A stretch of 64,000 nt of DNA, from assembly GCA_013239625.1 (NCBI GenBank), contig MU053557.1:4556123-4620122 (forward strand). The letters run 5' to 3'. The stretch is from Lama guanicoe. Taxonomy: Eukaryota. The notes beneath the pieces are model-generated. The model was not told the origin of the DNA. It saw only the letters and a program-made list of their open reading frames with translations, and made no database searches. A program made the translations under genes and the position numbers. Of the stretch, positions 11,053 to 57,643 are shown piece after piece (position 1 is the first letter of the stretch; each line of letters opens with the position of its first letter).

Positions 11053-11104
11053 CTGGGCCCCAGGACAGACTTGGCTCCCCCGAGATGCAGAAGCAGCCAC
11101 CCAT
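11053..11104 (-). CDS. SH3TC2: SH3TC2 coding exon 1 (52 nt): MGGCFCISGEPSLSWGP(G)
   Basis: ATG at 11104-11102 and CCAG|gtgagt donor. Matches recalled human MGGCFCIPRERSLTRGPG with its N-terminal Gly/Cys lipidation motif. The phase 1 end fits exon 2. Confidence 0.96.
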
Positions 11105-11769
11105 GTGTGCACCATCCTCCCTGGACCGAGGCCCCTGGGAACACCAGCCAGAGGAGCATGGGAGGGAACAGCCTCCCAGTGGTGTCCCTCCTCCCGCCTC
11201 CTCCCTGGCACACGAGGGACCAAGTCCTGCTCAGTGCACAATGCAGCCTTTGATATCCTGGCTGCAGCAGGAGGCCCAGGGAGGATGGGAGGGGCAGCCC
11301 AGCCCTCAGGACCCATAGTCCTTGCACTGTCAGGCCTCTGACTAGGGAGCAGAGCTCCTCCCTGCCTCTCTGCAGATCACTTCATGCCTATCAGGCTGTG
11401 GCACATTCCACACATTCTAGGATTGAGACACACAGTATGGTTCTTGTCGGGGTGGTCAGGGTGGGGGAGGAGGGCAGAGAGCATCCCAGGAATCAAACTG
11501 CTGTTCTTGCTCCCTCCCTGACTGGCCTGGCCCACACTGACCTGCCTGCCACTGGGAAAGGGCTCCCCACCCAGCCTCTCTCTGCAAACACCTCCCTTGG
11601 TTGTCTGGGTGAAGCTGGAGCTGTGGGCGCAGCATCTCACCTCACCCCCAGCAGCATCAGCGAGCCAATCCCCAGTCCTGGCTCCCAAAGTCTTGGTCAG
11701 AAGGAATCCCAGAAATCACCTGATGTAGCCCAGCATCTTACAGGTGAGAGGATGGGGGACCAAGTATGT
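11105..11769 (-). promoter_or_regulatory. SH3TC2: SH3TC2 5'UTR and proximal promoter, with a dimeric SOXE-type site ACAATG-n4-CTTTGA at 11238-11253
   Basis: Lies directly upstream of the ATG. Two inverted SOX half-sites with a 4-nt spacer are visible. SH3TC2 is a known SOX10-regulated Schwann-cell gene. The TSS cannot be placed exactly. Confidence 0.7.
11242..11769 (+). repeat. Near-identical tract 1, copy A (pairs with 37289-37815)
   Basis: About 6 differences in ~528 bp by eye. Confidence 0.97.
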
Positions 11770-13029
11770 GAAGGATACAAGTATGCACAAAAAATGGGCC
11801 CCACCAGACCAAACTCTTTACCATTTTGGATAAGGAGCAGGGAAGGGGTATGCAGTTGACACAGTATGGCTGAATTTCATAAAATCACCCATGACATCTC
11901 CTAAAAGAGACGGAGAAAATACTATTGAATGCCAACGAGGTTAGACAGAGGCCAGACTGATCCAATAACCAAGCTCAAGGATCACTAATTACTTACTGTT
12001 TCCCTAATGCCAGGAGCCAAGGTCAGTGACGAGTGGTCTAAAGAGTGAGGAGCTGTGGGTCGAGGGAAGGCAGGGTCCAGGCGGCCTGCCTTGCAGGCTG
12101 CTTGGAGGCTAGACTTGAGGTCAGTCTCACAAGCACTGTAAGGAGAGAGGTGGCCTGGTCAAGTTCATATTCTGGGAGGAGCACTGGGGTGACAATGTGA
12201 AGGACAACCTAGGGGTCCGTCTCACTGGAGTGATCTGGGGCATCCGATGCACGCATCAGCTCAGCCCCAGGTGACAGGGTCTCAGCCATGTCTCTGAAGT
12301 CTGGCTTCAGTCTCCATGCTGACTCATCTTGACTCCCAGTGGCTGGATGTTCCCTGTGGCGCCGGCATTCATCATACATTACTTCGTTTAAATCTCGTAA
12401 CAGCCTCATCATACCAGCATTGTCATCTCTATTTTGTAAGTGAGGAAACTACCGCAGAGGGGTGTATAACTTGCCCAAGGCCCCACCATTTATGAATGTC
12501 AGATTTAAGGCTTGAGCAGGTCTAGTTGATTCCACAGCCCAAGAACTTCACTTTCATGATATTCAGGCTCTCTCTATGCCTACAATGAGGAAGGATTCGG
12601 TGATCTGATACTGAGGCTTCTGGAGCTAGCTGACCGCTTCTGGAGGGTCTGCGATAGGGGTCTGGTGTGGGGAAAGAGAGTGCAGGGCAGAGCATCTCTC
12701 TGATCACAAAGCCACCGTGGAGGATATTTTTCTGCATAGATCTGCTTAGAGTATCCACTTCCATAACATATCTCATGTCTTTTCCCTCACCAAAGCAGTG
12801 TTTTAAGTATGAATTAGAATGTTTTCTTGGGCCTAACATTAAAGGGTAAGGGTTTCTTTAGAAAGCAGCCACTCAAAACTTTGGGAGGTATGTGAGAATC
12901 AGTGAAGAGAAACCAAGGTCTAACTTGCACATGATGACAAATGCTCAGACTTAACATTTCTCCTTGACTTGCCTGCGCACCATTCCTAGACAGGCACATC
13001 AGCAGAGGTCAGAAATTGTAAATGATCAA

Positions 13030-15130
13030 GACCAACCAGTGGAAGGATCCCTAGGCCATCTGTCAGAGAGGACACCCCAAGGCAGTTGGTTGAGACATAC
13101 ATTTTGGCAAATCTGAAATAAATGGTTCATTCTCAATAAAGTCAGTGCTTTTCTTGGGATGCAAGAAACCAGTGCTTCTCTGCTTATGGGTAGCTCAGAT
13201 GAATTAGCAAGAACAAAGAGCTTTCCAAACAGAGAGAACAGCAAGTGCAAAGGCCCTGGGGCTGGAACTTACCTGGCATGTTTTAAAAGAAAAGCATGTA
13301 TAGTTGGAATCTAGTGAGTCAGGGCAGGATATAGATGTGAGGTCGGAGAAAACAGCAGGAGGCCAGATTGTGTAGGACCTTGAAGGCCATTTAAGACTTC
13401 AGCTTTTAGTCCAAGTGAGAGAGGAGTCAATGGAAGACACTAAATAGAGCAGTCACATGACTGACTTGTGAGGGCAGACCTAGAAAACAAATGCAGACCA
13501 TATGAGAGATCAGAACAACAGGTCCCTTATTCAATCGCATTATTCCGTGAACAAATATTTACAGAGCATCTGCAACATCCAGGCATTGATCTAAGTTGTA
13601 AGGATACAGCAGTGAACACAACAGACAAAAGACTCTCCCTTGTGTAGCTTACATTCTAGTGAGGGAAGAAAGACAAGAAACAGAATATATAAGTACCTTA
13701 TGCAGTGTGTTAGATAGCAGAAAGTGTTATGCAAAAAAAAGAATGGAACTGCCAGAGTAGAGGGGCTGCAGTTTTCAAAAGGGTGGAGAGAGAAATTGTC
13801 ACTGAGAAGGTGACAAATGAGTGACATGAGGAGAGGGCAGGGGGATCATCGGCATCCTGCAGGAGCCCCTGCCAGGAAAAGGGAAGTGCCAGTGCAAAGG
13901 CCCTGAGGCAGAAGTGTGCCCAGCTAGAAAAGGAGCAGGAGAGGGTATAACTTGAGCAGAGTAAGAATAGGGCAGGAAGCAGAGGGCACCCTCAAAGGAG
14001 TAATTAAAAGAGTTTAAAGAAAGAACTATTCACCAAAATGTGGGCAGGGTTAAAGTGAACCAGCAAGGCTGGTGAGGCACCCTAGGGCTGGGAAGACTAA
14101 AAAGTCGTTAGCATCCCTAAGGCTGAAGGGACAAGAGGAGAGAGTGGCTGTCAGAACATAGCAAGAAATGGCTGCAGGCCAGAGCTGACAACAGGAGCTG
14201 TATCATTAATAGAGGAACACAGCCACAGGCTGGCCAAGGCCATGTATGCACAGGGGCCAGAGGAATAAATGCTCCATCCTCTCACCTCCTGTCTTCCATT
14301 GACTGAGCACAACTGGAAGCCAAAGGATGAGAGAGCTGAGCTGAGGACGCCTGTGAAGGCCAGCATCCAGCAGAACAAGGGAGAGAAAGGTGAAGAGGGG
14401 TCCAAAGGATAACTAAAGACCGTCCAGTGCGGGGGGAGAGGGATCAGCGTCCCAAGGATGCCGAGCTTGCTAGACCAGTGTGGGGGCGTGGCTGTCACGC
14501 TGAGTGAAATGGCAGCCACTGCAGCGGTTTGAGCAGAAGAATGATGATGTGATTTATGATCTGAAAGAATTGTAGGAGCAGGAGGCGACTGCAGTAATCC
14601 AAGTAAGAGGAAGTGTGTCTTGGGCCAGGGTGGGGGCAGCGGAGGCAGTGAGATGTGGCGAGATTCTGACTTACTTTGAGGTGGAGGCAGAACTGTCTGC
14701 AGATGAAACACAGGGTGTGAGAGAAGGAGGAGTGAGGGGGGTTCCCCATGTTTGGGCCTGAGCACCTGCAAGGAGCATGGTAGCCATGACTGGAGAGGAG
14801 ACATCCGGAGGTTGGGGCAAGCTTGGCTGATTGGTTGGGTTGACGTGTTGAGTATGAGAAGTCTATTCTCCATCCACTGGAGGACGTGGAACAGGCTGTA
14901 GGATACCCAAGTCTAGAGTTCAAGGGAAAGGCCTCTACTGGAAACTTAGACTTGGGGCTCATGGGGATATAGACACATACTGGAGATATGAGGAGGAAGT
15001 TAGCATGTACCAACGGGAAAAGCAAAGAAAGCTGCATGGAGGAGGTGGCGTGTGACTGTGGCCCTTGAAGGATGAAATTTTGACAGGCACACATAGGTGG
15101 GAAGAAAAAAGCCATAGCAAAGGTGCTAGG
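13030..15130 (+). mobile_element. L2 fragments with a nested MLT1-like LTR piece (~13985-14390); the same composite recurs at ~42540-43860
   Basis: L2 motifs (gtgcaaaggccctgagg, ttcaatc..aacaaatatttac). Shared diagnostic string ggaactgccagagtaga..gctgcagttttca..gtcactgagaaggtgacaa at ~13745 and ~42768. Confidence 0.65.
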
Positions 15131-15390
15131 ATTGACAGTGGGGACAAGTTCAGGAAACAGTACTTCGGTTCAGATGAGCCCGAGGACGGATGATGGAGAG
15201 AGCAGAGATGGAGGCCTGTGAGTTTCTGGTTCAGTCATCAGTGACCTATTTATTCAGTGAACATTACTGGTTGCCTACTTTAAGCACTGTGTTAGTTGTG
15301 GACATTAAGAAGAAGAAGAAGAAATGCTGACGGAGCTCTTATTACATGCTTATGTGAAAATTCCACATCTAATCTTCACCCCCTACTTAA

Positions 15391-16683
15391 AGATCAGGAC
15401 ACCAAGAGTCTGGTGACTCGCCCCAGCTCACCCGGCTGACAGGACACAGCAGAGTCAGGACTGGAGCCCGGGAAGGGACTGCAGGGCCCTGGTCCACACC
15501 ACTCTGCCGGGGGGCCCAGCCGTGTCTGTGTGGTATAGTTGGGCGCCCTTGGAGGTGCAGACAGGTCACTGCGCCAGGGGTGAGGAGTTACCCACACTTT
15601 CCTCTTGCCAAGGGTCAGCCGAGGAACTGGCCCAGCAGCTCTGGGGAGGAGGTGGGGCTGCTGACCAGGGCAGAGGTCATCACACTGCCGGCTTTGACCT
15701 CACCAGGGGCTGCCGACTTCTCTTTCTAAAACATCAGTTTCCTGTTTCTTGGCTCCCACAGCCAACCTTAGGTCAAGGGCAGGCAACTGACGCCTCACCC
15801 TGAAAGGTTAGCAGTCAAAGTGTCTTTATAGTAATGGGTCCACTCCCCAGCCCATGTTAAAGATAAAGAAACTGAGGCCCATAAAGACTGAGTCATGTGT
15901 TCAACACTTACAGACAGTTTTGTGGCAAAGCCTATATGAGAACTCAGACCTCAGGACTCTCAGCTCATCATTCTTCCACGAACCATGCTAAACTAATCAG
16001 TTCATGTTTTAAAAGTAGGGTCCCCAGTGAGCAGGCTGGGACAGGAGGGTGTGTGTGTGTGTGTGTGCACGCATGCACCAAGTACAGGATACAAGCCGAG
16101 GTCTGACACTCCCCACCACTCCCGGGGAAAGGAATTTCTCCTCAGTCCAACTTACCTTTAAGAAAAGTTCAGGTTTTATGCATCTGACCCAGTGAATGGG
16201 ACAGGAAGGAGGTGCCCTTCCATCCAGCGAGGCCACCTCGGGTGTCTTTTCTGGAGACACTCGCACCCGGGCACCAACAGGCCGTGCAAGCAGCATGGCT
16301 GGAAATAGTGAGAAATGGAAGGGACATCAATGCCCATCAATGTGAAAACAGTCAAATACTGATGGTGCATTTAGTCAGCAGTGAAAAAGAATGAAGCAGG
16401 TCTAGATGGAGAGTCAAGGAAAGATTTCCAAGCCATATTATGATGCAAAAACTGAAGAAACTTGCACACAGTGATAGCGTGTGGCCCCACTTATGTACAG
16501 AAGCACACTATATATGTGACTTTGAACATACAGGAAGGAGACCACATCAGCCTGATGATGGTGATTTGTTCATTCACTCCACAGGTGCACATCCAGGGCC
16601 CTCCCCATGCCCCTGGCCCTTGGCTGGATGAGGGGTCAGCAGAGCCCAGAGCAGACAACACCCCTGCCTCCTGTAGCCAGGTG
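15391..16683 (+). repeat. High-identity tract 2, copy A (pairs with 45058-46353); ~85% to 15727, then ~96%
   Basis: Read directly. Duplicated ORFs MFNTYRQF.., MMQKLKKLAH.. appear in both copies. Confidence 0.97.
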
Positions 16684-18684
16684 GAGGGAGGGGGTGAAGG
16701 GAAAGGAACATGATGTCTTTTTCTCGTATACACTTCTGTGTTATAGCAACTTTTCCAGCCACAGTGTTTCATGGTGTTGCCATAATAAATACAAAAAGAT
16801 AGGAACAAAGAGAAGGTGGAAGAAGAGAAGGGAGGAGAGGTGCCTAGATAAGAACAGTGTGTCAGGAGTGGTCGTGGAGGGTCACTTTCGAGCTGACATA
16901 CTCTGGACCTGACTTGAGAGATGGTCTTTGTACCGAGCATCACAGAAGGACCAATTGGAGACTGCCAGGCACAATGTCCACAGCATCTTAGCAGGAAGGA
17001 GGCACATTCCAGGAATAGCAAATCCCGTTACTCCCTACAGTTTCTTGATAGCCTTCAGACAGTGCTGCCTGTAGCTGGTTACAGCCCCTAGAGGAGGAAA
17101 ATTTTAAGCCGAGGATCATCTTCTGGGTCTGATGCTGTGAAAACAGCTGCACAGTCTTCTGGGATTGTGGTCTTGCAGACGTGGCTTTACACCCTCTGCC
17201 CCTGATCTAGTGCCTCCATCTGACCAGCAACCTATTTAGAGGGTCCTCACTGGTGCTGGGATCCAGAGGGTGCAGAGGAAGCCTCTTCTCTTCTTGAAGG
17301 TGCCACACCTCTGCTCAGTCTACCCGAGAGAAGATGGCACGATTGGCTACATGGATTACACTGAGGGACACGTCCTTCCCTACCAGAGCACCTCCCAGTC
17401 TTTGGGCTTGTCCTCTTCTCTCTGCAGAGGAATTGGCAAGACAGCCTTACTGGCCAGAAGGGTAACAAACAGATCTTACCGCCACTCTGATCAACTTACC
17501 TCCCTGGTCAACTTAGGCACTAGATTTGTGGGCAGACAACCTGAATTCAAATCCAGGCTCTGCCATTCTCCAGCTGTATGCTCTTTAGCCCATTTCTTCC
17601 TTTATAAATAACAGTAACAATAATAATTAAGTGGAGGTAACAAAGCAGTTCTACCTCACAAAGGGGCTGTGAGTGTATAACAAGGTGTTTATGGGTGTTT
17701 TCCACTTGTGCAAATCGTGCAAGTGTGCGTGTGCATAGGCACGCACACAGGTCACTGTTCCACTAGTCTTAGGCATGCTCGCCTCGCGTCTGGAGCGGTT
17801 AGGACTCTGAGGAGGAAGAGGCATCCTACATGAGCAGGATGTGCCCGTCAGCTGTGACAGAGACAAAACCTTGGTTCCAAGTAAAACCAGATCTGCCTGT
17901 CCTCAGAGATAATCGGAGAGATTCCTTTCTGTTACCTCGGGCAAAGGCATCCAGCCGAGGCACCCTAGCTGCATGTCTGTCCTTTCTCCTCAATTGGCTA
18001 ATATTTTCAGCAGACAGGAATTTTACAAGGTGTTTACTTAAGAAAGAAAATCTCATACTGAACTATTTTCATCATGATATTTGGCTTTGTGATCTAAGGA
18101 AATGTGTATCTCTCTCTCTCTCTCTGTCCTGGTGTTTTGTAGATAAATTTTGTTGGGCGACCTTGGGCACGTCAGCCATTTCCCCTTCAGTGCTTTCCCC
18201 TCTTCCTTAGGTGATGTAGCTTTGAGTCCCCACACCATTCAGGTCTTGCTCCTGTGAACACTGTCCAAGCTGCTCTGGAAGTGGGGACCCAGATTTCCAT
18301 CCTGTTGTCCAGCACAGCTTCGTCTTCTGCGTTCAGCTCCGAGGCGCTGTCCCTCCTTTGTTTCACTTACTGTACTTCCGTTAATAGATCCCAAGCTTAC
18401 ATCAGGAGACCACTCACATTCTATCCACTGGTAGAGATTTACCAGAATTCAGATGCTTAGATCCTGCCCAACCATGGTGTATCATTATCTCTGGTAGCAG
18501 GGTGATTGGAGGTCTTCTTTTAGACACATTCCAGGTGATTCTAATGTGCATCCAGACTTTGGCAAATAATCCCCGAGAGGTTTCTTTTGCGGGGATGAAG
18601 GGCAGTCAGGTGTAGCAAGGATGTGAATGCCCATTTCTGCTTTCTTATCTTGTGATCCACACCAAAGTTAATTAAAAGCCTTCA

Positions 18685-18699
18685 CCACAAGAGGGCAGC
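18685..18699 (+). promoter_or_regulatory. CTCF-like motif CCACAAGAGGGCAGC (copy A)
   Basis: Matches the CTCF core; paralogous to 46934-46948 (shared flank tgatccacaccaaa). Confidence 0.6.
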
Positions 18700-19291
18700 A
18701 CATGCAGGGAGTTTGGACTCAATGCAAAGAGTCTGAAAGAGTTCCTTTTATTCTTCAAGATCCACAAAGAATCAAATAAGACTTACAATTGTGCAGGAGT
18801 TCCCCGTTGACAAATCCCTCCATCTCATTACATCCTCACACCACATCCGTGACATAGCGGTTGGACCTGACGTTTTTGTAAGTGATGAAAAGGTTGTCTG
18901 AGAGAAATCAGGTGACTTCTCCAAGGTCTTATTGCTAGTAATTGGCAGAGCTGGATTTTCCCAAACATTCCAGCCAGCAACAGCACATACAGCAGCTTTC
19001 ACCACTTAAGACATCCAGGAAGACATGAACCAGACATACACACAGTGCCCAACCCTCAAGTCCTGCCTCAGTCAACATCTATCTAACAATAAAGATCAGA
19101 ATGATTTCAGCCTACGCAGAACCACACATGTGCAGGGGTCACACAAACAATCAGAACAGTTTTATCATACATGCATTTAACTTGAAGGGTTTCAGCATTA
19201 CATGAGCAGCCAGGGAAAGTAGGAAAGAAAAACCATTTAAATAGGGTAGCCAGGGCTTCTCAAACGTTAACAATGGATGTAAAATCTCTGA

Positions 19292-19789
19292 TGTAGTAGG
19301 CAGAACAGTGGTCCCCAAAGATGCCCTAACCCCCAGAACCTGAGAATATGTTACCTGTCCAGGCTGAAGAGACTTTGTTGATAAGGAATTTGAGACGGGG
19401 AGACTGTTTGGATTATCCAGATGTAATCACAAGGGTCCTTATAAGAGGGAGGTAGGAGGGTCAGAGTCAGAAGAAGATGTAAAGACAGAACTAGAAGCAG
19501 AGGTCAGAGTCAGAGGAAGTGGTCCGAAGATGATACTATGATGCTGGTTTTAGATGGAAGAAGAGGCCATGAGCCGAGGATCGTGGGAAGCCTCTAAAAG
19601 CTGGAGAAAGCGAAGCATGGATTCTCCCCTAGAACTTCCAAAAGGAATACAGCCCTGTCAACACCTTGATTTTATTTATCCCAGTAAAACCCACTTCAGA
19701 CTTCTGATGTCTAGAATTTTAAGATAAGAAATTTGTGTGGTTTCAAGCCATTAGGTTTGTAATTACAACAGCCTCAGGTAACAAATACA
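19292..19789 (+). mobile_element. MLT1 (MaLR) solo LTR, MLT1C/D-like
   Basis: tgtagtaggcagaa..ccccagaacctgagaatatgttacc..acaccttgatttt..ggtaacaaataca, with TG...CA ends. Confidence 0.85.
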
Positions 19790-22711: not shown

Positions 22712-23550
22712 TAACAGTCTCATGGGGAAGAGAGATGATAAACAACTGTAACAAATGAATCAGTGATAAGGGGTACGAAGGGGGAGGTAGGGACAGAAGT
22801 TAAGTCTTCTTAACCCCTAATGTCTCACCCACTTGTCCAGCCGCCACCTTCCACACTTGAGGAAGATGACGCAGACGGCACTGATCTGCTCAAGACCAGA
22901 CTACACCCATCTGTTTCCAAGCAGGATTAGAAGCTAACACTGTTTCCTGCAACGCCAATCCTTTCTTCACAGCCCCTCCCGATGACGTGTCTGTTTTCCT
23001 ATCATCGTCTAGCCGTTATACCCCAGTACCCAGGAAAGGGAAACAGCGCTCAGGCATCCCCTTGCTGGCCCCAGGACACAAAGGCCCCAGCCACTCCCCA
23101 GGACCCAGGGAGAAGCCTGGGCAGAACGTGGCCTGGATTACGCGCCGGCGCGTCCACCAGGTGGCAGCAGCGAGCGGCCGCGTTGCCCCCGCCCTGCCTC
23201 CCTGTGGTCCACACCCTCTTTGGGCTCCCGAGCTGCTGGGCTGCAACAGTCGGGGTGTGAGGCGGTGTGAGCGAGCAGGCGCTGCCAGCTTGGCTTCTGC
23301 CCGGCAGTCGAGTCCCAGGAGCAGGAGGGTCTGGGCGCCCGTATCCTCTCTGCCTCCTCCTCCCTCCTACTCTCACCTGCACCTGTTAGTCCGCACACCT
23401 TAAAGGCCAGTGGCTACAGCCAAGACGGGAGACGGGAGACCGGGCAGCAGGAGGGAGAGCACCTGAGGATACAGAGCTAGCGCTGCCCTTTCACCCCTCC
23501 AGGTGATGAGTGAGGTCAGAAGATCTGAAGATTTAAAGGAAACCGGGGCC
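22712..23550 (+). pseudogene. Decayed duplicate of the ABLIM3 5' end: promoter kept, exon 1 deleted, exon 2 truncated before the ATG
   Basis: 22712-22992 matches 56531-56812 with one indel. The rest is ~85-90% identical, lacks the counterpart of 57012-57248, keeps acceptor ccag|GTGATGAGTGAGG at 23502/23503 and stops at ~23550. Confidence 0.92.
23154..23168 (+). promoter_or_regulatory. CTCF motif CCACCAGGTGGCAGC in the pseudo-ABLIM3 promoter
   Basis: Canonical motif, identical to 56983-56997. Confidence 0.7.
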
Positions 23551-23600
23551 AGAGAGAGAGAAGGAAGGGAAGGAAGGAAGGAAGGAAGGACTGACGGAAG
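23551..23600. repeat. (AG)n/(GAAG)n microsatellite at the end of ABLIM3 homology
   Basis: Read directly. Confidence 0.9.
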
Positions 23601-23604
23601 GACA

Positions 23605-24420
23605 GACAAGGCATTCAAGTTAGAAAGGAAGAAGGAAAACGATTCTCAGGTGTCATAATCTTGTAAGTGGAAAATCATAAGGAATCCAATTTTTAGAAAA
23701 AGTATTAGAAGTAGTAAACAAGTTTAGCTAGTTTTCACGATATTAAGAACAATGTACAAAAATCAGTTATTTTCTGTGCACTAGCAACAAACAATCCAAA
23801 GATGAAATTAAGAAAACAATTCAATTTACCAAAGCATCAAAAATAATAAAATGCTTAGAAATATATTTAACAAAAGGAATGCAAAACTTACACTCTGGAA
23901 ACTACAAAAGATTGTTGAAAGAAATTAAAGATCTACATAAATGGAAAAACCTCATGTTCATGGATTTGGAAGACTTAATAGTGTTAAGATGGCAATGCCT
24001 CAATCAATCTGCAGATTCGATACAGTCCCTGTCAAAATCCCAGCAGCTTCATCTTTTTTTAGAAATTGACAAGCTGATACTAAAATTCATGTGGATGTTT
24101 TAGGGACCCAGAATAGCCAAAACAATCTTGAAAATGAAGGATAAAGTTGGAGAACTCACACTTCTCAGTTTCAAAAGTTATTATTAAAGCAATGGAAATC
24201 AAGACAGTGTGGTACTATCTAAGGATAAATCACTGTAATAGAATTGAGAGTCTAGAAATAAACCTGTGTGTCTGTGGTCAGTTAACTTTCCACTAGGATA
24301 TCAAATCAATGGAGAAAAGAATACTCTTTGAACAAGTGGTGCTGGGACAACTGTGTAGCCACATGCAAGAGAATGAAGCTGGATCCTTACCTCACATCAT
24401 GTAAATAAGTTAACTCACAG
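23605..24420 (+). mobile_element. Old L1 ORF2 (RT region) fragment at the junction of the two duplicated units
   Basis: ORF 23879-24103 (NYKRLLKEIKDLHKWK..EIDKLILKFMW) is L1 ORF2-like. Confidence 0.88.
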
Positions 24421-25003: not shown

Positions 25004-25133
25004 TCAGCTAGTAGGCAGATGTTGTATCAACATAGCAACCTGCAGGGAAGCTGGCACATCTGACTTCCTGTCACTTCCCTGGATCCAAAGAGAACATCTC
25101 ACCTTGTCGCTGAAGAAAGTAGAGTTCTTGCAC
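25004..25133 (-). pseudogene. Decayed SH3TC2 internal exon (exon 9 equivalent)
   Basis: Translates CKNSTFFSDKVRCSLWIQGSDRKS/frameshift/CASFPAGCYVDTTSAY*L versus recalled human [44 protein letters not shown]. Acceptor AG is mutated to AT; there is a frameshift and an in-frame TAG. Confidence 0.88.
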
Positions 25134-27740
25134 ATGAATTAAGGCCACAGACCTGCCACTTTCTGCACTTCACCCTGGGATGTGGTGGGAGACCATCCAC
25201 CCGCATTGCTCATGGCTGAACCCTGCCTCAGCATCTCATTCGTTCATGATATAGTCAAGCTCCCAAGTAAGAAAAGCTGTTACCAGCTCATGAGTGTGGA
25301 GCTGAGCTGAACAACTGCTGACTAGATCAAAGCAAGAGTGAAAATGCTGCTCTCAACAGCACCGTCTCTCAGGCAACAAAGCCAGTTCTTCCCTTCACCC
25401 TGTCTTTTCCTTGAGGCTGCATGGTCCCCACTTTCCTGGGAAATGCAGAAGGGGTTAAATGTAAAGGTCAGAGAGAGACCATTAAATGAAATTTCTTTAT
25501 AGTTAGGCAATTTGAGGGAGAAATCTAGGGACAGGTGATACAATGTTGAGAAACCATGAAGCAAGGCTGACTCTAGTCAGAAGGAAGCTTGTACCACTGT
25601 TACAACAAGTCCGTTGTGAGTCATTAAGAAAATCACAGAATTGCTAAGGGATGGGAAGTGGGGTTGAAGGAATGTCAGGGGGCTGGAAGAAAATGATCAC
25701 AACAACAGATCTTTATGCCCACCCTGCTAGGTTCCAAGCTTGGCTAAAACTAACTTTCCTACTAAGGTGTTGGCATAGAAGTAAAGAATTTTCAAACTGG
25801 AAGATTTTTTAGAAAGTATCCAGTCTAGAATATATCTAGATACATTTTAAAGCCCCATCTAGACCTAGAGAGACACTTTTTAAGTTCAGAATCATTTTTT
25901 TAAAGAGATACAACTTGGGACTTAATAATTAATAACAAAAATCACTAACTGAGTGCTTATTTTGAACCAGGCACTGACATGAGTGCTTCATGTATATTAT
26001 CTCATTTAATCCTCACAACAGCCCTTTGAGGCAGCACTGTTACTGTTTCTTTGTTACAGACGGAGAAAGTGAGGCACAGAGCGATGAAATGCTTGCCAGA
26101 GTCACACTGCCGGGCTGTCGTAGGGCAGGGCACAAGAAGAGCAAGGTAGAGGACAGGGTGTAGAGTGGGGAAGGGGTCAGCAACCCTGTCACTTTCCTTC
26201 TCTCCCACAGCTCAGAGGACCCTGTTTGAAAACACCCGATAAAGAAAACCAGAGGATAAACTGAATCACTCAAGGTCAAGGTAGGATAAACTGTGACGAA
26301 GATTAATATTTTAATGCGTATTTAGCTTTAAAGATAGGGAAATCTGTGGGAGCCAAAAACAAGCGCTGAATTCAAAGCCGTGTGAGCATGCCAGAGCAGA
26401 TGCCATGGGGATCCCATGAAACCATGGGGTGGGAAGTGGGGTTGAAGGAATGTCAGGCGGCTGGAAGAAAACATGGCCCTCAGGCCTGGGCTGGCCTTCT
26501 AATGCCCACCCCTGTGCCCCTTACAGCGATGACCTGGGGCCTCTGTAAGGCAGGAGCGCAGGACTTGTGCTCCCTGCATGAAGCTTGAAGCCTGAAAATG
26601 TTGCTTTTCCATCACAAAGAAATTGGAAAAACTTCCTTCTGCCTTCAGAGGACACCCTGAAGAAGCCGTGCATCTGTGAGAAAAAATCAAACCCCCAGAC
26701 TCACTCCTTGAGAAGGTGTAGGATCTGAATTTACTCCTAATTCCTCAGGAATCCCAGTCAGGGAAGTTGGTGACAAAAATTGGCCCTTGGATGTTGATTC
26801 TCTAGAAAGGCAACAGACACAATTGGAAAAACTACTCTATAAGGATAGTGCAGGGCTCATGAGAAGCCCATTTTTTCAAATGTTGAAGACTAGTTCAGAG
26901 TAGTTCATAATTAAAGAGATATGAATCACTCGAGGAAATTAATTACCTGGAGAGGAAACCAGCAGATGCAACTAGACAGTGAATTAGAATTGCAAGAATG
27001 GGAATAAAAGAACTGGAAATGAAAGTTTTAGAATAAGTATGTTAAAATAATTTAAAAGATTTTTTAAAATTAGGAACTGTACTGAAAGAATAGAGCATTA
27101 TGGGCAGACAAATTTAATAAATACCTAAATACAGCTCCTAGAAACAAACAAACAAACAAAAAATATTGCAATCCAGGACTCACTGGATAGGTTAAACAAA
27201 AGAGTCAACACAGCAGAGGAAAAAAATCACTGAACCTGAACACAGATCTGCAGAAATCACCTGGAATGTAGCTGGAGAAACAAGGTAGAAACTACGAAAG
27301 AATTAACTATGCAAGACAGAGAATAGAATGAGAAGTCGAACATGATCTAGCAGAACTTCCAAAGGGAGAGACTGAAAGGGAGTCAGTATTCACAGGGAAA
27401 ATGACTGAGAATATTCCAGAGTGACAACATGAATCTTCAGGCTGAAAAAGCTCATTAAGTTCTCAAGAGGGCAAATAAAACTAAAATATGATTTCTGTTT
27501 CTCTCAAGGTTTTATCCATTCTGATTTTTCCCCCAATCCTCATTTCTGGGTTTGATTTCCATTTCACTTAAGTGTCCAGTTTTATAGAATGAAAGAATTA
27601 AATCAAAACACAAGGACATAAATTAATAAAATAAAAAAACAGAATATAGGAAGAAGGAAATAACAATGATGAATGATAAAATCAATGAAATATTTCTGTG
27701 TTTTAAGGACTCATTTTCAACCTGCTGCTGTTATAGAATT

Positions 27741-32100: not shown

Positions 32101-32889
32101 ACATTCTTTACGTGGCATTTCAGAGGAATGGTTAACATTTGCTTTAGATTTATTTACAGACCATTTGGGATATTTCAAAATATCCATGTCCATCTATGTC
32201 CTCTTCAGGGATTTACTTCTTGTAATGTTTAGAGCCAGATTAATTCCTTAATGTCAACTTCTACAGATTGGCTGTGCTGTCTCTTGGGCTGCCTGCTCCG
32301 TGCTTGCCTGAAATTCTGCTTTGAACTGTAGCTAGCCATGGTCTGAATGTCCCTTCTCCTTAAAGCCAGGTCATTTTTATCAAGAATCAGTCAGTTGAAT
32401 CAGCGTGTTACAGGTGACAGAATCTCAATTCAGTGAAGCTCAGCAGAGAGGGAGAGAGAAACTTCAGCCTCTGATCAGAGGAGACACAGTAAAGGAAAAG
32501 ATAATTGAGCTGCGCCTGAAAGGATGCAGACAATCCTAAGTGAAGGTGTGCAGGAGAGCATAAAAGTATTGGGAAAGAAATGGATGAAAACTTGGCAGTC
32601 AAATGTGCAATGTCGGTTTAGCAGATAATACAGAGTCCATGTTAACTGTGGCCAAAAAAATGATATGAAATGGAGTATAATGAGTCATGACATGAGGGTG
32701 AAAATGGCATCCAGACTGTGCAGCGTTTTGTATGTCCGCCTGAAGAGATTTAAATTAACCTTGTAGGAAATGCTGAGTGATGGAAGATTTGTAAGCAAGT
32801 AAATGTCACAAAGTTAATGTCCTTGCACAGATGTGTTTTGTTGTGGTGTCTAGCTCATCTGCAGATGATATATGAGTCTAAGCATGAGT

Positions 32890-35800
32890 AATAATCTTCC
32901 CAAATTTGGTTTACCTTGGTGAATGTACCAAGTACATGAGGAAAAAAATGTCTATTCTATAGTTACAGGATATAGTGTTGCAGAAATATTAATTACGTAA
33001 AATGATTGTGTGATTTACAGGTCATCTTTATTTTTACAGTTTGGGGGTTCCTCCAATTGTGTGCTATTTAATTGTTGAGAGAGGGTGTTAAGATCCCCAA
33101 TTGCGATTATAGAATTTCTATTTCTCCCTTTGATTCTCTCAACTGCTTCGTTGTATATTTTAAAGATCTATTTTTCAGTACATGTATTAATAATGATTAT
33201 ATGTCTTTTTGTGTACAATTTCAGCCACTCCAACCTTATTACACTTACAGCTTACATGATATCTTTTCAATCCAACTGCTTTTACCTTATCTTTGAATTT
33301 AAAGTATGTATCTGGTCAATAGCATACAATTGGGCATTACTGTCTTTACAATCAGTTCTGGCAGTCTCTCTCTTTTAATTAATGTTATTTTACAGTCTAC
33401 TGACCCTTATGGTTTGTATTGAGAAGTCAGTGGCCTTTGGAATTGATACTAAAGAAAAACTATTTATGACAGTTGTTAAAGATGGTAAGGAAGACTTTAT
33501 TCAGGAAGAGTCTACTGCAGTGGGATTTTGCAGGCTCGACTCCAAATGCAACAGGGACAAGTGGAGATTTGTAGCCAAGGAGCAAGGTGGGGTCAGCAAA
33601 TTACTCTATTGTCTGGATGTGCCACAGTTTGTTCACCTCCTGAAGGACATCCTGGTTGCTTCCACGTTTTGGCAATTATGAATAAACCTGCTGTAAACAT
33701 CCTTGTGCAGGTTTTTGTGTGAGCATACTTTTTTGATTCCTTTGGGTTAACGCTAAGAAGTGTAATTGCTAGATCATATGGTAAGAGTATGTTTAGTTTT
33801 GTAAGAAGCTGCCAAATTGTCTTCCAAAGTGGTTGTACTATTTGCATTCTCACTAGCAATGTATGAGTGTTCCTGTTGCTCCACGTTCCCTCTAGCATTT
33901 GGTGTTGTCAGTGTTCTGGATTTGGGGCATTCGAATTGGTGTGTAGTGGTATTAATTTGCATTTCTCTGATGATGTATCATGTGGAGCATCTTTTCATAT
34001 GCTTATTTGCCATCTGTGTGTCTTCTTTGGTGAAGTGTCCATTAAGGTCTTTGGACCATTTTTAATTGGGTTGTTTGTTTTCTTATTGTTGAGTTTTAAG
34101 TGTTATTTGTATATTTGGGATAACAATCCTTTATCAGATGTGTCTTTTGCAAATATTTCTTTTTAGCCTCTGGCTTGTCTCTTCATTCTCTTGGCAATGT
34201 CTTTTCTGGAGGCAGAAGTTTTTAACTTAATGAAGTTTGGCTTATTATTCATTTCTTCTATGGATCATGTCTTTGGTATTGAATCTAAAAAGGCATCTCA
34301 ATACCCAAAGTCTTGTCGGTCTTCTCCTAGGTTCTCTGCTCGGAGTTCTGTAGTTACACATTTAACGCCTAAGTCTATGATCCATTTTGAGTTAATTAAT
34401 GGGAAGATTATAAAGTCTATACCTAGAATAGACACAGGTCTAGATGTTCAGTGGTTCCAGCTCCATTTGTTGAAAAGACTACTTTCCCTCCACTGTACTG
34501 CCTTTGCTCCTTTGTCAAAGATCGGTTGACTGTATTTATGAGAGTCTTATTTCCTGGGCTCTCTATTCTGTTCCATTGATATATTTGTCTTTTCTTTCAC
34601 CAGTACCAAACTGTTTTGATTACTGTAGCTTTATAGTGAACCTTGAAGTCAGGCAGTGTCAGTTCTCCAACTTTGTTATTCTTCTTCAATATTGTATTGG
34701 CTGTTCTTAATCATTTGCGCCTCTATATAAACTTTAGAGTCAATTTGTCGATATCCTTAAAATAACTTGCTAGAATTTTGATTGGGATTCTGCTGAATCT
34801 GTAGATCAAGTTCAGAAGAACTGACATCTTGACGCTATTGAATCTTCCTATGCATGAACACAGAATCTCTCTCCATTTATTTAGTTCTTCTTTGACTTTA
34901 TTCATCAGACTTTTATAGACTTTCTCATATAGATCTGGTACACGTAAATATTTCACATTGGAGGTACTAATATAAATGGTATTGTGGTTTTAATTTCAAA
35001 TTCCACTTGTTCATTGTTGGCATTTAGAAAAGCCATTGACTTTTGTATGTTAACCTTATATCTTACAACCCTGCTGAAATTGCTTATTAGTTCCAGGAGT
35101 TTCTATTGATTCTTTTCAGTTGTCTATGTAGATGATCATATCATCTGTGAACAGTGTCTTCAGTCTCACTTCCCAATCTGTATACCTTTTGCCTCCTTTT
35201 CTTGCCTTATCGCATCATGAAGGACTTCTAAAATTAATAGTTCAGTTAATGTTATCATGGTCTATTTTTCTCCACCCATTTACTTTTAATCTACATGTGT
35301 CTTTCTATTTAAAGTGGGCTTGTTGTAGACAATGTGTAGTTGGGTCATTTTTTTTAATCAATTCTGTCTTTAATTGGTACATGTAGACAATTGAAATTTA
35401 AAGCAACTATTGATATATTTAAATTAATGTCTACCATATTTGTTACTGTTTCTACTTGCTCTCTTTATTCTTTGGTCCTATTTATGTCTTCCACTCTTTT
35501 TCTACCTCTTGTGGTTTTAACTGAGCATTTTATATGATTTCATTTTCTCTTCTTTCTTAGCATATCAGTTATACATCTGTTTTGTTTTTAGTGGGTTCCC
35601 TAGAGTTTGCAGTATACACCTACAACTAATCCAAGTCCACTTTCAAATACACTATACCACTTCACAGGTAATGTGAACACCTTATAATAATAAAATAATC
35701 CTGTTAAAAAACAAAATTCAACTGGATAAATTTGAAGATTCCATTGAAAAAAAGGAACAAAGAACAAATGGAAACAAAAAAACATAATGACAAGATGATA

Positions 35801-37105
35801 GAGTTAAACCCAACCGAGTAATAATTACATTAAATGAAAATGGCCTAAACTCTCCATTTAAGGGGGAGGATATAGCTCAGTGGTAGAGCACATGCTTAGC
35901 ATGTACGAGGTCCTGGGTTCAATCCCCAGTACCGCCATTAAATGAATAAATGAATAAGTGAATGAATGAATAAATAAATAAATAAATAAAACTAATCACC
36001 CTCATTTAAAATTCAGAGATTGCCTGATTGAAGAAAGGAACCTAGATACATAAATATAAAGACATAACTAGGATAGAAGTAAAAGGATGAAAAAGGAAAT
36101 GCTATTTAAATATCAAAGGAAAGTTGGCATGCCTGTAGTACCATCAGTTCAGTAAGCTTCAGAGCAAGGAATATAACCAGGAATAAATAGGGATACTTCC
36201 TAATAATAAAGGAGTTAATTCATTAAAAAGACATACAATATTAGAAGTGTGTGCAGCTAACAGCACAGCTTAAAATACACGAGGCAATAAGTAACAAAAC
36301 TGAAAGAACTAGAAAACAATCTACCATTTTAGTTGGATATTTCAGCAGTTCTCTTTCAGTAATTAATAGAACATTAGACCAGAAAAAAAAAATCAGTAAG
36401 GATACAGAAGACTTGAACAACGCTTTTAATCAACTTGACCTAGTTGAATTTTATATAACAATGCCCTCCCCCAATCAAAATAGACGTTCCTTTCAAATGC
36501 ATGTGAAACATTCACCAAGAAAGTACATATTCTGGGACAAAAAAACAAATATCAAGTTACTTGAAGGATTGAAAGCATACGAGTAGGTTCTCTGAAGACA
36601 GAGGAATTAAATTAGAAATTAATCAAAGAGATGTACCTGGAAAATCCCCGAATATGTGCAAATTAAATAGAACACTCCTAAATAACTCAGGGGATGTAGG
36701 AGAAATCATGAAGGAAACTAGAAAATAGTCCGAATGTAATACAACCTGTCAAAATTTGGGAATGCAACAAAAGCAGTGCTTTAGAAAGGGAACTTTATAA
36801 CATTAGGTGCTTATATGAGAAGAAAAGAAAGTCTCAAATCAATTACCTAAGCAAGTCAAATTAAGCAAAAAGTAAGGAGAAGGAAGAAAGAAAATAGTAC
36901 AAGTAAGAGCAGAAATCAAATAGAAGTTGAACAAATAAATAGATGTTAACTAAACTTACTGCGATGATCATTTCACAATATATGTAAGTCAAATAGTTGT
37001 GCTGTGCACAGACTTATACAGCATTGTGTGTCCATTTTATCTCAGTAAAACTGGGGCAAAATAGAGAATATCAACAAAACCAAAGAACTATTTCTTTGGA
37101 AAAAC
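32890..37105. mobile_element. Nested L1 cluster (antisense ~32.9-35.7 kb, sense ~35.75-37.1 kb) with small LTR-like pieces
   Basis: Minus ORFs RMFTAGLFIIAKTWKQPGCPS and KWREILCSCIGRFNSVKMSVL; plus ORF KKKISKDTEDLNNAFNQLDL. Confidence 0.85.
35862..36002 (+). mobile_element. Camelid Vic-1-like tRNA-derived SINE
   Basis: ggggaggatatagctcagtggtagagcacatgcttagcatgtacgaggtcctgggttcaatcccc carries A and B boxes, then (TAAA)n. Flanked by catttaa on both sides. Confidence 0.85.
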
Positions 37106-37288
37106 AGGCTCTACATCCCTCTGACCCAGGGATGCAGAGATAGCCACCTCTGTCTGCACCACCCTTTCAGGGCTGAGGTACCAACTGCCATCGGCCTGAA
37201 TGGTGTTGGGGGGGCACCTTGCTAACGATGTCCCTCCTCCAACTCCTGCCAGAAACATGAGGGACTCGAAGTCCTTCTCAAAGCACAG
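37106..37288 (-). pseudogene. Decayed SH3TC2 exon 1 / 5'UTR: ATG changed to AGA (37151-37149), splice donor lost to L1
   Basis: AGA GGT GGC TAT CTC TGC ATC CCT GGG (RGGYLCIPG) aligns with ATG GGT GGC TGC TTC TGC ATC TCG GGG. Collinear with 11070-11241 at ~70%. Confidence 0.88.
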
Positions 37289-37815
37289 TGCAGCCTTTGA
37301 TATCTTGGCTGCAGCAGGAGGCCCAGGGAGGATGGGAGGGGCAGCCCAGCCCTCAGGACCCATAGTCCTTGCACTGTCAGGCCTCTGACTAGGGAGCAGA
37401 GCTCCTCCCTGCCTCTCTGCAGATCACTTATGCCTATCAGGCTGTGGCACATTCCACACATTCTAGGATTGAGACACACAGTATGGTTCTTGTCGGGGTG
37501 GTCAGGGTGGGGGAGGAGGGCAGAGAGCATCCCAGGAATCAAACTGCTGTTCTTGCTCCCTCCCTGACTGGCCTGGCCCACACTGACCTGCCTGCCACTG
37601 GGAAAGGGCTCCCCACCCAGCCTCTCTCTGCAAACACCTCCCTTGGTTGTCTGGGTGAAGCTGGAGCTGTGGGCGCAGCGTCTCACCTCACCCCCAGCAG
37701 CATCAGCGAGCCAATCCCCAGTCCTGGCTCCCAAATTCTTGGTCAGAAGGAATCCTAGAAATCACCTGATGTAGCCCAGCATCTTACAGGTGAGAGGATG
37801 GGGGGCCAAGTATGT
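37289..37815 (+). repeat. Near-identical tract 1, copy B: duplicate of the SH3TC2 promoter
   Basis: Direct repeat of 11242-11769. The duplicated ORFs in the supplied track (MAHSTHSRIE.., MGARTGDWLA..) confirm it. Confidence 0.97.
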
Positions 37816-44560: not shown

Positions 44561-45057
44561 TTTGAAAAAGAAAATTATAAGAACAGTAAAACCAAAAAAA
44601 CAAAAGAAAGAAAGAAAAAGCAAATATATTTACAGAACACCAACTTTGTGCTGGACACTCTTCCAGGCACCAGGGACAAAGCAAGGAATGAAACTGACCA
44701 GGATCCCCACTCTTGTGGAAGTTTCAGAATGACGTTTGTCCAGCATTAGCAAAGACCCACCTGGCAAGAAAGGTCTCTTTCTGGAGACTCACCTACAGCC
44801 CTAGTCCAACAGCCTCTTATTTCTCAACTATTTTCTACTCTACCCTCCACATCAAGACTCCCAGATGCCAGTTCTTTGGTTTTTATAACTAACACTTTGT
44901 TTAAAATTTTATATTTTAGTGAGGAAAACTCTTTTTATATTACATGTAATAATATAAATACATTTTGGTCAACAAAGTGAAAAATAAAAGAAAAAACAAC
45001 TTCACTTAATCCTTACAACACCCCATTAGAGCTTTACTAACATTGTCCCCAGGTTAG

Positions 45058-46353
45058 AGATCAGGACACCAAGAGTCTGGGTGACTAGTCCCAGCTCACC
45101 CACTGACATGTCAAAGCAGAGTCAGGGCTGGAGCCCGGGAAGGGACTGCAGGGCCCTGGTCCTCACTACTCTGCCAGGAGGGCCCAGCAGTGTCTGTGTG
45201 TTGTAGCCCGACTGCCATCAGAGGTGCAGACAGGTCACTGCACCAGGGGTGAGGTGTTACCCAGACTTTTCTCTTGCCAAGGGTCAGCCGAGGTACTGGC
45301 CCAGCAGTTCGAGGGAGGAGGTGGGGCTGCTGACTGGGGCAGAGGTCACCATGCCACCAGCTCTGACCTTACCCGGACTGCTGACTGCTCTTGCCAAAAC
45401 ATCAGTTTCCTGTTTCTTGGCTCCCACAGCCAACCTTAGGTCAAGGGCAGGCAACTGACGCCTCACCCTGGAAGGTTAGCAGTCAAAGTGTCTTTATAGT
45501 AACGGGTCCACTCCCCAGCCCATGTTAAAGATAAAGACACTGAGGCCCATAAAGACTGAGTTATGTGTTCAACACTTACAGACAGTTTTATGGCAAAGCC
45601 TATATGAGAACTCAGACCTCAGGACTCTCAGCTCAGCATGCTTCCACAAAACATGCTAAACTAATCAATTCATGTTTTCAGATTAGGTTCCCCAGTGAGC
45701 AGGCTGGGACAGGAGGGTGTGTTTGTGTGTGTGTGTGTGCACGCACACCAAGTACAGGATACAAGCCCAGGTCTGACACTCCCCACCACTCCCGGGGAAA
45801 GGAATTTCTCCTCAGTCCAACTTATCTTTAAGAAAAGTTCAGGTTTTATGCATCTGACCCAGTGAATGGGACAGGAAGGAGGTGCCCTTCCATCCAGCGA
45901 GGCCACCTCGGGTGTCTTTCCTGGAGACACTCGCACCCGGGCACCAACAGGCCATGCAAGCAGCATGGCTGGAAATAGTGAGAAATGGAAGGCACATCAA
46001 TGCCCATCAATGTGAAAACAGTCAAATACTGATGGTGCATTTAGTCAGCAGTGAAAAAGAATGAAGCAGGTCTAGATGGAGAGTCAAGGAAAGATTTCCA
46101 AGCCATATTATGATGCAAAAACTGAAGAAACTTGCACACAGTGATAGCGTGTGGCCCCACTTATGTACAGAAGCACACTATATATGTGACTTTGAACATA
46201 TAGGAAAGAGACCACATCAGCCTGATGATGGTGATTTGTTCATTCACTCCACAGATGCACATCCAGGGCCCTTCCCATGCCCCTGGCCCTGGGCTGGATG
46301 AGGGGTCAGCAGAGCCCAGAGCAGACAACACCCCTGCCTCCTGTAGCCAGGTG
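45058..46353 (+). repeat. High-identity tract 2, copy B
   Basis: Direct repeat of 15391-16683; the near-identical core is 45396-46353. Confidence 0.97.
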
Positions 46354-46575: not shown

Positions 46576-46686
46576 AGGGAGGGGGAGGGTATGCTTAGCA
46601 TGCACGAGGTCATGGGTTCAATCCCTGGTACCTCCTCTAAAAATAAATAGACCTAATTACCTATCCCTACCAAAAATAAAAATTCC
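46576..46686 (+). mobile_element. Vic-1-like SINE lacking its A-box; perfect 12-bp TSD
   Basis: ggggagggtatgcttagcatgcacgaggtcatgggttcaatccc. TSD aaaaggggcctg at 46564-46575 and 46687-46698. Confidence 0.85.
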
Positions 46687-46948: not shown

Positions 46949-47169
46949 ACAGGCAGGTTATTTAAGCTGCAGAGGAAACAATCTCACCTGAGGAAACTAT
47001 GGTCTTCCCACAGCTCCAGGCTTCCCGGTCGCTCCGAGGATTATTTTAACTGAATGAGATCGGGGTTCCTAACCTCTGATGATGTAAGTCCCATGTATGC
47101 AAAACTATCATTGGCTTGGAGCAACGGAGGATTTTTTTGGTGAGTGTTTTATTTTTCGTTACTCAATTC

Positions 47170-56300: not shown

Positions 56301-56530
56301 AGGTTAAGTCATGAGGCCACATGCCAGCTCTTTGCCTCAGACAGGGAAGTGTTTCAAGGTGGGGATTCCTAGACCTTCTACTCTGAGGGCTTCGTGATAT
56401 TAGACCCAGAGAAGACCCAGGACGTTCTGTCAACAAATATTTATCGATACCTACCACGTGTTGGGTGCTTTTCTAGGTATTGAGGGCCTGGCAATGAATC
56501 TTACGGATAAGACCCATACTTTGATAGAGT

Positions 56531-57000
56531 TAACAGTCTCATGGGGAAGAGAGATGATAAACAACTGTAACAAATGAATCAGTGATAAGGGGTACGAAGG
56601 GGGAGGTAGGGACAGAAGTTAAGTCTTCTTAACCCCTAATGTCTCACCCACTTGTCCAGCCGCCACCTTCCACACTTGAGGAAGATGACGCAGACGGCAC
56701 TGATCTGCTCAAGACCAGACTACACCCATCTGTTTCCAAGCAGGATTAGAAGCTAACACTGTCTTCCTGCAACGCCAATCCTTTCTTCACAGCCCCTCCC
56801 GATGACGTGTCTATTTTCCTATCATTGTTTAGCTTTTAGAACCCAGTACTCAGGGAGGGGAAACAGCGCTCAGGCATCCCCTTGCTGGCCCCAGGACGCA
56901 AGGGCCCCATCCATCCCCCTTCACTCCCCAGGACCCAGGGAGAAACCCCGGCGGGGCGGGGCCTGGATACGCACCGGCGCGTCCACCAGGTGGCAGCAGC
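56531..57000 (+). promoter_or_regulatory. ABLIM3: ABLIM3 promoter: CRE-like TGACG half-sites, CCAAT, GC boxes, CTCF motif at 56983-56997
   Basis: CpG-rich region with ggggcgggg boxes at ~56950-56961, directly upstream of exon 1. Confidence 0.75.
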
Positions 57001-57171
57001 GAGCGGCCGCGCCCCCCGCGCAGCCACGCCGCGAGCCCGCATCATGGATGTCGAGCTCTCCTATTTCGCTTCGCTCGCCTTGGAATTCGAGACCCCAGAA
57101 GAGGACCAGGATTCATGAGCCGGTCGCAGGGGCCCGGACTGGGGCCTCTGGCTCCCGACACTGGCCGAGAG
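57000..57171 (+). other. ABLIM3: ABLIM3 5'UTR exon 1 (start approximate), containing uORFs
   Basis: Inside the CpG island; strong donor GAG|gtgagt at 57171/57172; next acceptor ccctttcaccctctag at 57543. Confidence 0.75.
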
Positions 57172-57630
57172 GTGAGTCCTGGGGCGGGCCGCTGCTCGCG
57201 GCAGCCGGGCGGGGACGCGCTGCCCAGCTGAGCCGGGCGCCCCGCGCGTTGCCCCCGCCCTGCCTCCCTGTGGTCCACACCCCCTTTGGGCTCCCGAGCT
57301 GCTGGGCTGCAACAGTCGGGGGTGTGCGCGAGCAGGCGCTGCCAGCCTGGCTTCTGCCGGGCAGTCAGGTTCCAGGAGCTGGAGGACCTAGGCGCCCGTA
57401 TCCTCTCTGCCTCCGCCTCCCTCCTGCTCTCACCTGCGCCAATTAGTCTACTCGCCTTCAAGGCCAGTGGCTACAGCCAAGACGGAGAGGGGACAGCACC
57501 TGAGGATACAGAGCTAGCATTGGACTGCCCTTTCACCCTCTAGGTGATGAGTGAGGTCGGAAGATCTGAAGATTTAAAAAGCAACGGGAGCCTACGTATT
57601 GAATGAAAGATCCAGTGCGAAGGCATCACC

Positions 57631-57643
57631 ATGAACACGAGCA
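57631..57643 (+). CDS. ABLIM3: ABLIM3 first coding bases (MNTS + 1 nt) in exon 57544-57643
   Basis: atcaccATGAACACGAGCA|gtaagt. Recalled human ABLIM3 begins MNTSIPYQQ, and ABLIM3 is the known divergent neighbour of SH3TC2. Confidence 0.9.

Follow-up and report, generated by a model that had tools for sequence, protein, structure and literature searches.

How can two copies of one DNA segment stand about 35% apart over most of their length and still be almost identical in three short tracts? This question is raised by the SH3TC2-ABLIM3 locus of Lama guanicoe, which was analysed here in a window of 64,000 nucleotides (contig MU053557.1, positions 4,556,123 to 4,620,122), the whole stretch of DNA to which all coordinates below refer; "camelid" denotes the lineage of the window sequence. 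SH3TC2, a nerve-myelin gene linked to the neuropathy CMT4C (type 4C of Charcot-Marie-Tooth disease), and ABLIM3, an actin-binding gene, are placed head-to-head and point away from each other. An old tandem duplication of their 5' unit, followed by gene conversion of three tracts within a diverged background, is in our judgement a highly probable explanation of the whole pattern. Conversion of the tracts, which an earlier note on this DNA had named only in passing, is the main biology of the locus.

Three near-identical tracts

Three non-coding tracts, corresponding to the SH3TC2 promoter (T1), a middle element (T2) and the ABLIM3 promoter (T3), had cores that were 99.4%, 98.5% and 100% identical between the two copies, with graded edges:

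T1 core: copy 1 11259..11758, copy 2 37306..37804; 496 of 499 columns identical.
T2, candidate enhancer: copy 1 15380..16683, copy 2 45047..46353; strata of 86%, 96% and 98.5% identity, core 576 of 585.
T3, copy 1: 22712..23537, + strand, in the dead ABLIM3 5' half; core identical at 281 of 281 columns, followed by strata of 89% and 92%.
T3, copy 2: 56531..57578, + strand; promoter rich in CpG, together with the putative first exon (its donor at 57172) and the first intron of the putative functional ABLIM3.

T1 is the proximal upstream DNA of SH3TC2, located about 155-655 bases before the ATG, with an 80% identical edge at 11178-11258, and T2 contains a 207-base identical run. The shoulders around the tract cores showed identities of 80, 86, 96, 89 and 92%, and such nested strata are the pattern left by repeated conversion with differing end points. 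The longest identical run spanned 374 columns, against at most 67 in 2000 shuffles. The guanine-plus-cytosine (GC) content of the tracts was 52-59% compared with 46-49%, promoters being GC-rich in any case.

Conversion of T1

Outgroup DNA was taken from spurious open reading frames (ORFs) called on non-coding mammal contigs, and its nucleotides were inferred from the protein letters aligned to the window. The ORFs came from 12 matches among 29 candidates, 39 among 8000 scored, and cluster members (15 of 20 and 15 of 36 for two large clusters). At least 94 ORFs read T1, at least 71 being of copy-1 type (one only by a 14-bit match), at least 14, in seven clusters, of copy-2 type, and at least nine assignable to neither. 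For the T1 tree 22 of the 36 rows were used, and near-duplicate, short or possibly chimeric rows were excluded (P0177, P0130, P0137, P0140, P0145, P0089, P0090, P0134, P0142, P0097, P0147, P0096, P0139 and P0094).

The two window copies of T1 differed from each other at 3 of 424 sites, whereas the window and the Bos-type copy 1 differed at 22 of 289. They were sisters in the tree (support 96/97), and a clade of copy-2 sequences was rejected (approximately unbiased test, p-AU 0.0008; 0.002 without P0132, an ORF from one more distant mammal). Bases common to both window copies at 11448, 11437 and 11379 were present in 0 of 26, 0 of 26 and 0 of 33 other rows, respectively, and those at 11429 and 11542 were nearly as exclusive, since 20 of 21 and 13 of 14 other rows differed. 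The absence of these bases elsewhere together with the rejection of the copy-2 clade identifies gene conversion in T1, not constraint alone, and the outgroup comparison shows that T1 was converted after the camelid-ruminant split.

Several points weigh against this interpretation. The outgroup test covers T1 only, and T2 and T3 appear to have been converted as well on the basis of their identity profile. Silent sites are invisible in protein-inferred outgroup DNA, taxa were assigned by likeness only, and site 11379 is CpG-like. T1 is strongly conserved between mammals, with 9-16% difference at first and second positions. Mixed copy-1/copy-2 ruminant alleles (P0089, P0104, P0130 and P0140) may be assembly chimeras. 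Finally, three ruminant copy-2 rows formed their own clade (98/98), apart from ruminant copy 1, so that T1 has not been recently homogenised in them and conversion is episodic and lineage-specific.

Among bovid-like ORFs (P0089, P0111, P0137 and P0140) flank type and internal patch type were combined in all four possible ways, and two patch types occurred in cetacean-like copy 1 (P0090, P0091 and P0120). These mixtures may represent either conversion polymorphism or chimeric contigs; the four bovid-like combinations were rejected as proof of ongoing conversion, because short-read chimeras yield the same pattern.

A tandem duplication of the 5' unit

The eight collinear paralogous anchors proposed in the earlier note were all recovered, on the + strand and in order, and a ninth (22171-22536) was added:

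3-102/32755-32853, + strand: SH3TC2 intron 2; 73% identity over 96 columns, nhmmer E 4e-5, sole off-diagonal match of this DNA.
11078-12005/37125-38027, + strand: contains T1.
12042-12273/39647-39898, + strand: diverged, 67% identity.
13503-14774/42513-43871, + strand: diverged, 65% over 1237 columns; the alignment crosses both junctions of a nested insertion.
15380-16881/45047-46570, + strand: contains T2.
18456-18734/46708-46984, + strand: diverged, 66%.
21053-21566/54109-54672, + strand: diverged, 70% over 21133-21565; 94 bits against 5 for any other match.
22171-22536/54745-55057, + strand: presumably MIR-like; 47 bits against 23 for the next copy.
22684-23547/56503-57588, + strand: contains T3; 57008-57244 missing from copy 1.

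The intron 2 anchor is the weakest of them. The anchor at 13503-14774 is far longer than the 13640-14100/42640-43120 given before, and we take it to be an L2-like repeat with a nested MLT1-like long terminal repeat (LTR) whose junctions are the same in both copies; the one containing T2 ends about 120-200 bases short of its earlier range. When tiles of 1-32000 were searched at E<1e-3, 112 off-diagonal matches were found in the window and 0 in the reversed window. The increasing chain comprised 11 of the 20 merged plus-strand blocks (p=0.0007, repeat matches counted too), and at 10 of 10 anchor segments the collinear partner outscored every other match (by 112 bits to 22 in one case and 94 to 5 in another). 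Background identity was 66.2% over 2808 columns, a Kimura two-parameter distance (K2P) of 0.46; the low-identity anchors measured 61-73%, slightly lower than the roughly 65-75% that had been estimated. The diagonal was patchy with large gaps, 5386 of the 12470 bases of copy 1 (11078-23547) being aligned (43%). Matches between SH3TC2 intron 1 and 24.4-37.1 kilobases (kb) were out of order and repeat-like, and were not counted as anchors.

Relics of SH3TC2 were present in copy 2:

25005..25135, - strand: dead internal exon, residues about 334-378, frameshifted; profile independent E value 3e-7 against 1.8 for the best control.
32755..32853, + strand: relic of intron 2, paralogue of 3-102.
37125..37305, - strand: dead exon 1 and 5' untranslated region, without the start codon and donor; 63% and then 80% identical to its copy-1 counterpart.

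The relic exon at 25005-25135, which was matched by 58 of 86 query proteins, is the left end of the surviving copy 2. Together with the ninth anchor it shows that the unit was larger than previously held, extending past the left edge of the window and well inside SH3TC2. The head-to-head 5' unit was indeed duplicated in tandem: nowhere else in the window does the anchor at 21053-21566 match a repeat, the junctions of the nested insertion are shared, and copy 2 contains SH3TC2 exon relics, so that the refuting case considered in the earlier note, in which the anchors were independent repeat copies, fails. Targeted literature searches, whose reach excluded most subscription papers and all supplements, did not find a report of the SH3TC2-ABLIM3 duplication, although genome-browser self-alignments may already display it.

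Age of the duplication

Both copies were seen in the window, in six ruminant-like clusters and in one unplaced mammal. The six copy-2 clusters were recognised as ruminant-like because they resemble the N-terminal extensions of named Bos and Capra proteins, and the tails of three ruminant-like copy-2 ORFs matched, at 34707-34582, a LINE-1 present in copy 2 alone (at 60-64%, whereas other L1 pieces gave 41-54%):

34442..35198, - strand: LINE-1 fragment in copy 2 only, apparently common to ruminant copy 2.

The joining of these tails to LINE-1 suggests that about 2.5 kb inside copy 2 was deleted in ruminants. P0132 keeps the whole flank of dead exon 1, and scored 76 bits on copy 2 vs 22 on copy 1; at 35 readable diagnostic sites it had 23 copy-2 and 9 copy-1 matches, and flank-spanning copy-1 orthologues in the same alignment showed the reverse pattern (19-29 vs 5-11 diagnostic sites). 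The flanks thus sort by copy and not by species, as seen both in the P0132 flank sites and in the ruminant tails that join the copy-2 LINE-1. The presence of copy 2 in ruminant-like sequences and in P0132 shows, with taxa assigned as above, that the duplication predates the camelid-ruminant split. No copy 2 from a primate, rodent, afrotherian or xenarthran was found among the at least 94 ORFs reading T1.

A simulation with the same aligner indicated that 66% identity corresponds to a true distance (K) of 0.45-0.55, which amounts to some 0.23-0.25 substitutions per site for either copy. Comparison of the relic exon with eight live orthologues gave K 0.22-0.30 (+-0.07), and the live exon 2 gave 0.05-0.14. 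The neutral branch from camelids back to the boreoeutherian root is about 0.16 long and that to the placental root about 0.18, values for which we found no paper. From the divergence and this calibration, the duplication probably followed the shared LTR-like insertion and took place on the stem of the placentals. The early eutherian age proposed before is consistent with the divergence and with an origin before the camelid-ruminant split, its eutherian depth coming from divergence only.

Named SH3TC2 N-terminal extensions from bovids and elephant shrew (P0008-P0012, P0013 and P0016) read promoter DNA upstream of 11104 in frames that differ by species; such annotated extensions are likely annotation artefacts, useful as outgroup DNA. 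A PDB search with P0145 gave 0 matches, and two metagenome motif scans gave 0 matches and 1 chance match in unrelated GC-rich DNA.

Alternative explanations

Of the competing accounts, a younger duplication confined to Cetartiodactyla, with the background divergence inflated through misalignment, is unlikely but carries the most weight. Every placed copy-2 sequence was cetartiodactyl-like, and P0132 is unplaced, a position inside Cetartiodactyla not being rejected (p-AU 0.28); the background transition/transversion ratio of 1.3, vs 1.5 simulated, is also a hint of misalignment. However, 66% identity corresponds in the simulation to the true K of about 0.45-0.55, the relic exon by itself has the K given above, and P0132 shares most of the copy-2-specific changes. 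It is distinctly improbable that the near-identity of the cores is an artefact of assembly or polishing, i.e. a collapsed repeat over a real old duplication. The run index supports copy 1 only (at least 16 of the 24 listed runs carry 91-96% of the words of 11000-13000), but collapse cannot yield strata of 80, 86, 89, 92 and 96%, and copies 35% apart do not collapse, so that at most a value such as 97% could have been rounded up to 99-100%.

Purifying selection alone, keeping the tracts of an old duplication alike with no exchange, would fit the conservation of T1 across mammals and the ruminant and cetacean ORFs, which were near-identical in the core. We consider it very improbable, because the paralogues (0.7% different) are about ten times closer than the orthologues (7.6%), because camelid-only bases occur in both copies and the copy-2 clade is rejected, and because T2 and T3 include weak repeat-like DNA. 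The absence of any duplication, with the low-identity anchors being independent L2, MIR or MLT copies and the tracts separate small recent duplications, is hardly credible: several anchors are indeed repeat-like and the diagonal has large gaps, but the collinear matches are the best at all ten segments, a non-repeat anchor exists, copy 2 occurs in other mammals, and the nested insertion with shared junctions and the SH3TC2 exon relics refute it.

According to the explanation by duplication and conversion, a single tandem duplication took in the DNA from inside SH3TC2, beyond the exon of residues ~334-378, through the upstream region that the two genes share and as far as the first coding exon of ABLIM3. 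Because the genes diverge and both breakpoints would lie inside genes, the outer halves remained whole and the inner halves died. The copies then drifted to the approximately 66% identity observed, with large blocks lost or gained, and repeated non-allelic gene conversion overwrote one copy with the other at T1, and probably also at T2 and T3, at varying times and with varying end points. Purifying selection on promoter elements probably held the tracts similar enough for continued conversion, and conversion would halt before the parts needed only by the live gene, T1 stopping about 155 bases from the SH3TC2 ATG.

Anatomy of the two copies

The genes and the junction between the copies were marked by the following features:

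208..306, - strand: SH3TC2 exon 2, functional, copy 1; frame open, AG/GT ends, 84% identity to named SH3TC2.
11053..11104, - strand: coding part of SH3TC2 exon 1 with start codon and donor, functional, copy 1; frame open.
23598..24420, + strand: LINE-1 ORF2 fragment probably over the copy 1/copy 2 junction; E 6e-13 to solved ORF2p.
57544..57643, + strand: putative first coding exon of ABLIM3, coding MNTS; AG, ATG at 57631 and GTAAGT read in the sequence.

SH3TC2 was identified through named mammal proteins: the exon-2 peptide led to one relative, through which 85 of 939 candidate proteins were matched at E<=0.001, most of them bearing the name SH3TC2. The MNTS-coding exon, with splice sites at 57544/57643, is presumed by us to belong to ABLIM3, in line also with regional linkage to SH3TC2 in chicken and human. 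Chicken and human papers list both genes within one region in the portions consulted. A protein atlas search with the ABLIM3 exon frame returned nothing.

As the earlier note had described, the outer gene halves are intact (SH3TC2 exons 1 and 2 being open) and the inner halves are dead, so no extra gene was gained, and the inner halves meet across an L1 at ~23.6-24.4 kb, identified here as LINE-1 ORF2. Its further claim that the whole of the intergenic regulatory DNA was doubled is overstated, since 43% of copy 1 aligns and the putative ABLIM3 first exon is gone from copy 1. Copy 1 carries the live SH3TC2 start and the dead ABLIM3 start, and its left end is outside the window. Copy 2 contains, in order, the dead exon of residues 334-378, the intron-2 relic, the dead exon 1 and the live ABLIM3 start. 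The breakpoint junction is between 23547 and 25005, under or beside the LINE-1.

The dead ABLIM3 5' half in copy 1 ends before the ATG, at the LINE-1 ORF2 fragment, and lacks the equivalent of 57008-57244, the putative first exon and donor, with the deletion point at 23178. This deletion is flanked by 89-92% identity on both sides, suggesting that it is younger than, or survived, an earlier conversion of T3. In copy 2 the SH3TC2 exons between exon 1 and the exon of residues 334-378 were not found with a profile of the first ~460 residues, nor was any relic of exon 2 or of unique intron-1 DNA found.

Two tRNA-derived short repeats (35866-35937 and 46591-46648, 85% alike, Rfam tRNA match) occurred only in copy 2, which suggests that they are later than the duplication; the one at 35866-35937 fits a camelid source of the window. 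A 46-base direct repeat (25648-25693/26426-26471, 96% identity, 778 bases apart) adjoins the relic exon. Within SH3TC2 intron 1, a CpG-rich 1-kb block of 69% GC (1945-2955) resembles what we take to be a retrocopy of the ribosomal RNA 5' external spacer. The self-complementary element at 10373-10551 (E 3.5e-7) is presumably a DNA-transposon relic with terminal inverted repeats, and a weak inverted similarity was seen at 29279-29720 (E 2e-4).

Regulatory content

A pentamer that we take to be SOX-like was present at 11238 in copy 1 only, and a motif pair, presumably TEAD-like, was present in both copies. In peripheral nerve, SOX10 peaks are reported just upstream of Sh3tc2 (PMC3413122, in the part consulted), and SOX10-responsive elements at the SH3TC2 locus are cited in an available passage of PMC4879868. 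Divergent transcription from the human SH3TC2 promoter, SH3TC2-DT, is mentioned in an excerpt of PMC7318790. Two RNA runs with 20-30% of the words of 11000-13000 were not accepted as evidence of a divergent transcript, because their reads were not placed.

It is possible, though rather doubtful, that the locus is a placental-wide, regulatory-only duplicate of more than 100 million years in which both promoter/enhancer copies are live and kept in step by selection and conversion. A crossover within any tract would bring the locus back to one intact unit with no exon lost, and the long retention of the duplicate hints that the extra DNA is useful; rarity of tract crossovers would also account for it. 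If the duplicate were live, its persistence despite possible collapse would mean that the doubled elements are needed, and in humans reads from the tracts would be hard to map, while conversion or deletion alleles could arise from them at the CMT4C gene's promoter. Should copy 2 be retained in humans, care is needed there in calling variants and in mapping chromatin immunoprecipitation (ChIP) reads.

Comparison with known systems

In the window species the duplication with its converted tracts is real and has good support, and it is older than the camelid-ruminant split, the regulatory role of the extra copy being putative. GBA/GBAP1 and SBDS/SBDSP1 are gene-pseudogene conversion pairs that are young and alike throughout. 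As in them, the live locus can be altered when it exchanges sequence with its dead copy; in contrast to them, exchange here persists although the background is ~35% diverged, and it spares coding exons. A passage of PMC2720389 names Gaucher and Shwachman-Diamond diseases.

An eutherian repeat duplicate described in 2007 differs from this locus in that it consists of inverted repeats, reportedly homogenised over their full length, whose exchange flips genes, whereas the repeats are direct here, only three short tracts are alike, and a crossover would delete one unit. Both are old, kept alike by exchange and mostly non-coding, as far as the 2007 case is described in the part of PMC3961182 consulted. 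The flip/flop repeat of Saccharomyces is likewise homogenised within species over millions of years, but, according to the portion of PMC9731477 consulted, it belongs to yeast, is inverted and involves live genes.

Long-lived mosaic concerted evolution has been described for BMP8A/B, DDX19A/B and TUBG1/2 (Carson and Scherer 2009, PMC2720389), which resemble this locus in being adjacent old duplicates with high-identity patches in a diverged background and species-wise clustering within the patches, and perhaps also in raised GC. In that class two live genes have converted exons and introns, whereas here the inner halves are dead and promoter and intergenic DNA is converted. Their criterion is two intact genes with >97% identity over two exons and an intron, and the tracts here are non-coding; paralogues closer than orthologues were found for T1 only, and not in the three ruminant copy-2 rows, while high identity was found in non-coding DNA, where coding constraint is excluded. 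The locus thus works like the Carson and Scherer class yet is not a member by their definition, and is a variant of it. SH3TC2 does not appear in the main text of PMC2720389, and a screen requiring two consecutive exons and an intron at >97% could not find the SH3TC2-ABLIM3 locus. Known mammalian conversion over tens of millions of years involves two live genes and was found by exon-requiring screens; the same process appears here on the promoter DNA of a gene-less duplicate, and such screens may miss a class. The locus would also be a natural test of how conversion persists at ~35% divergence, its tract ends, direction and retention being readable in hundreds of mammal genomes.

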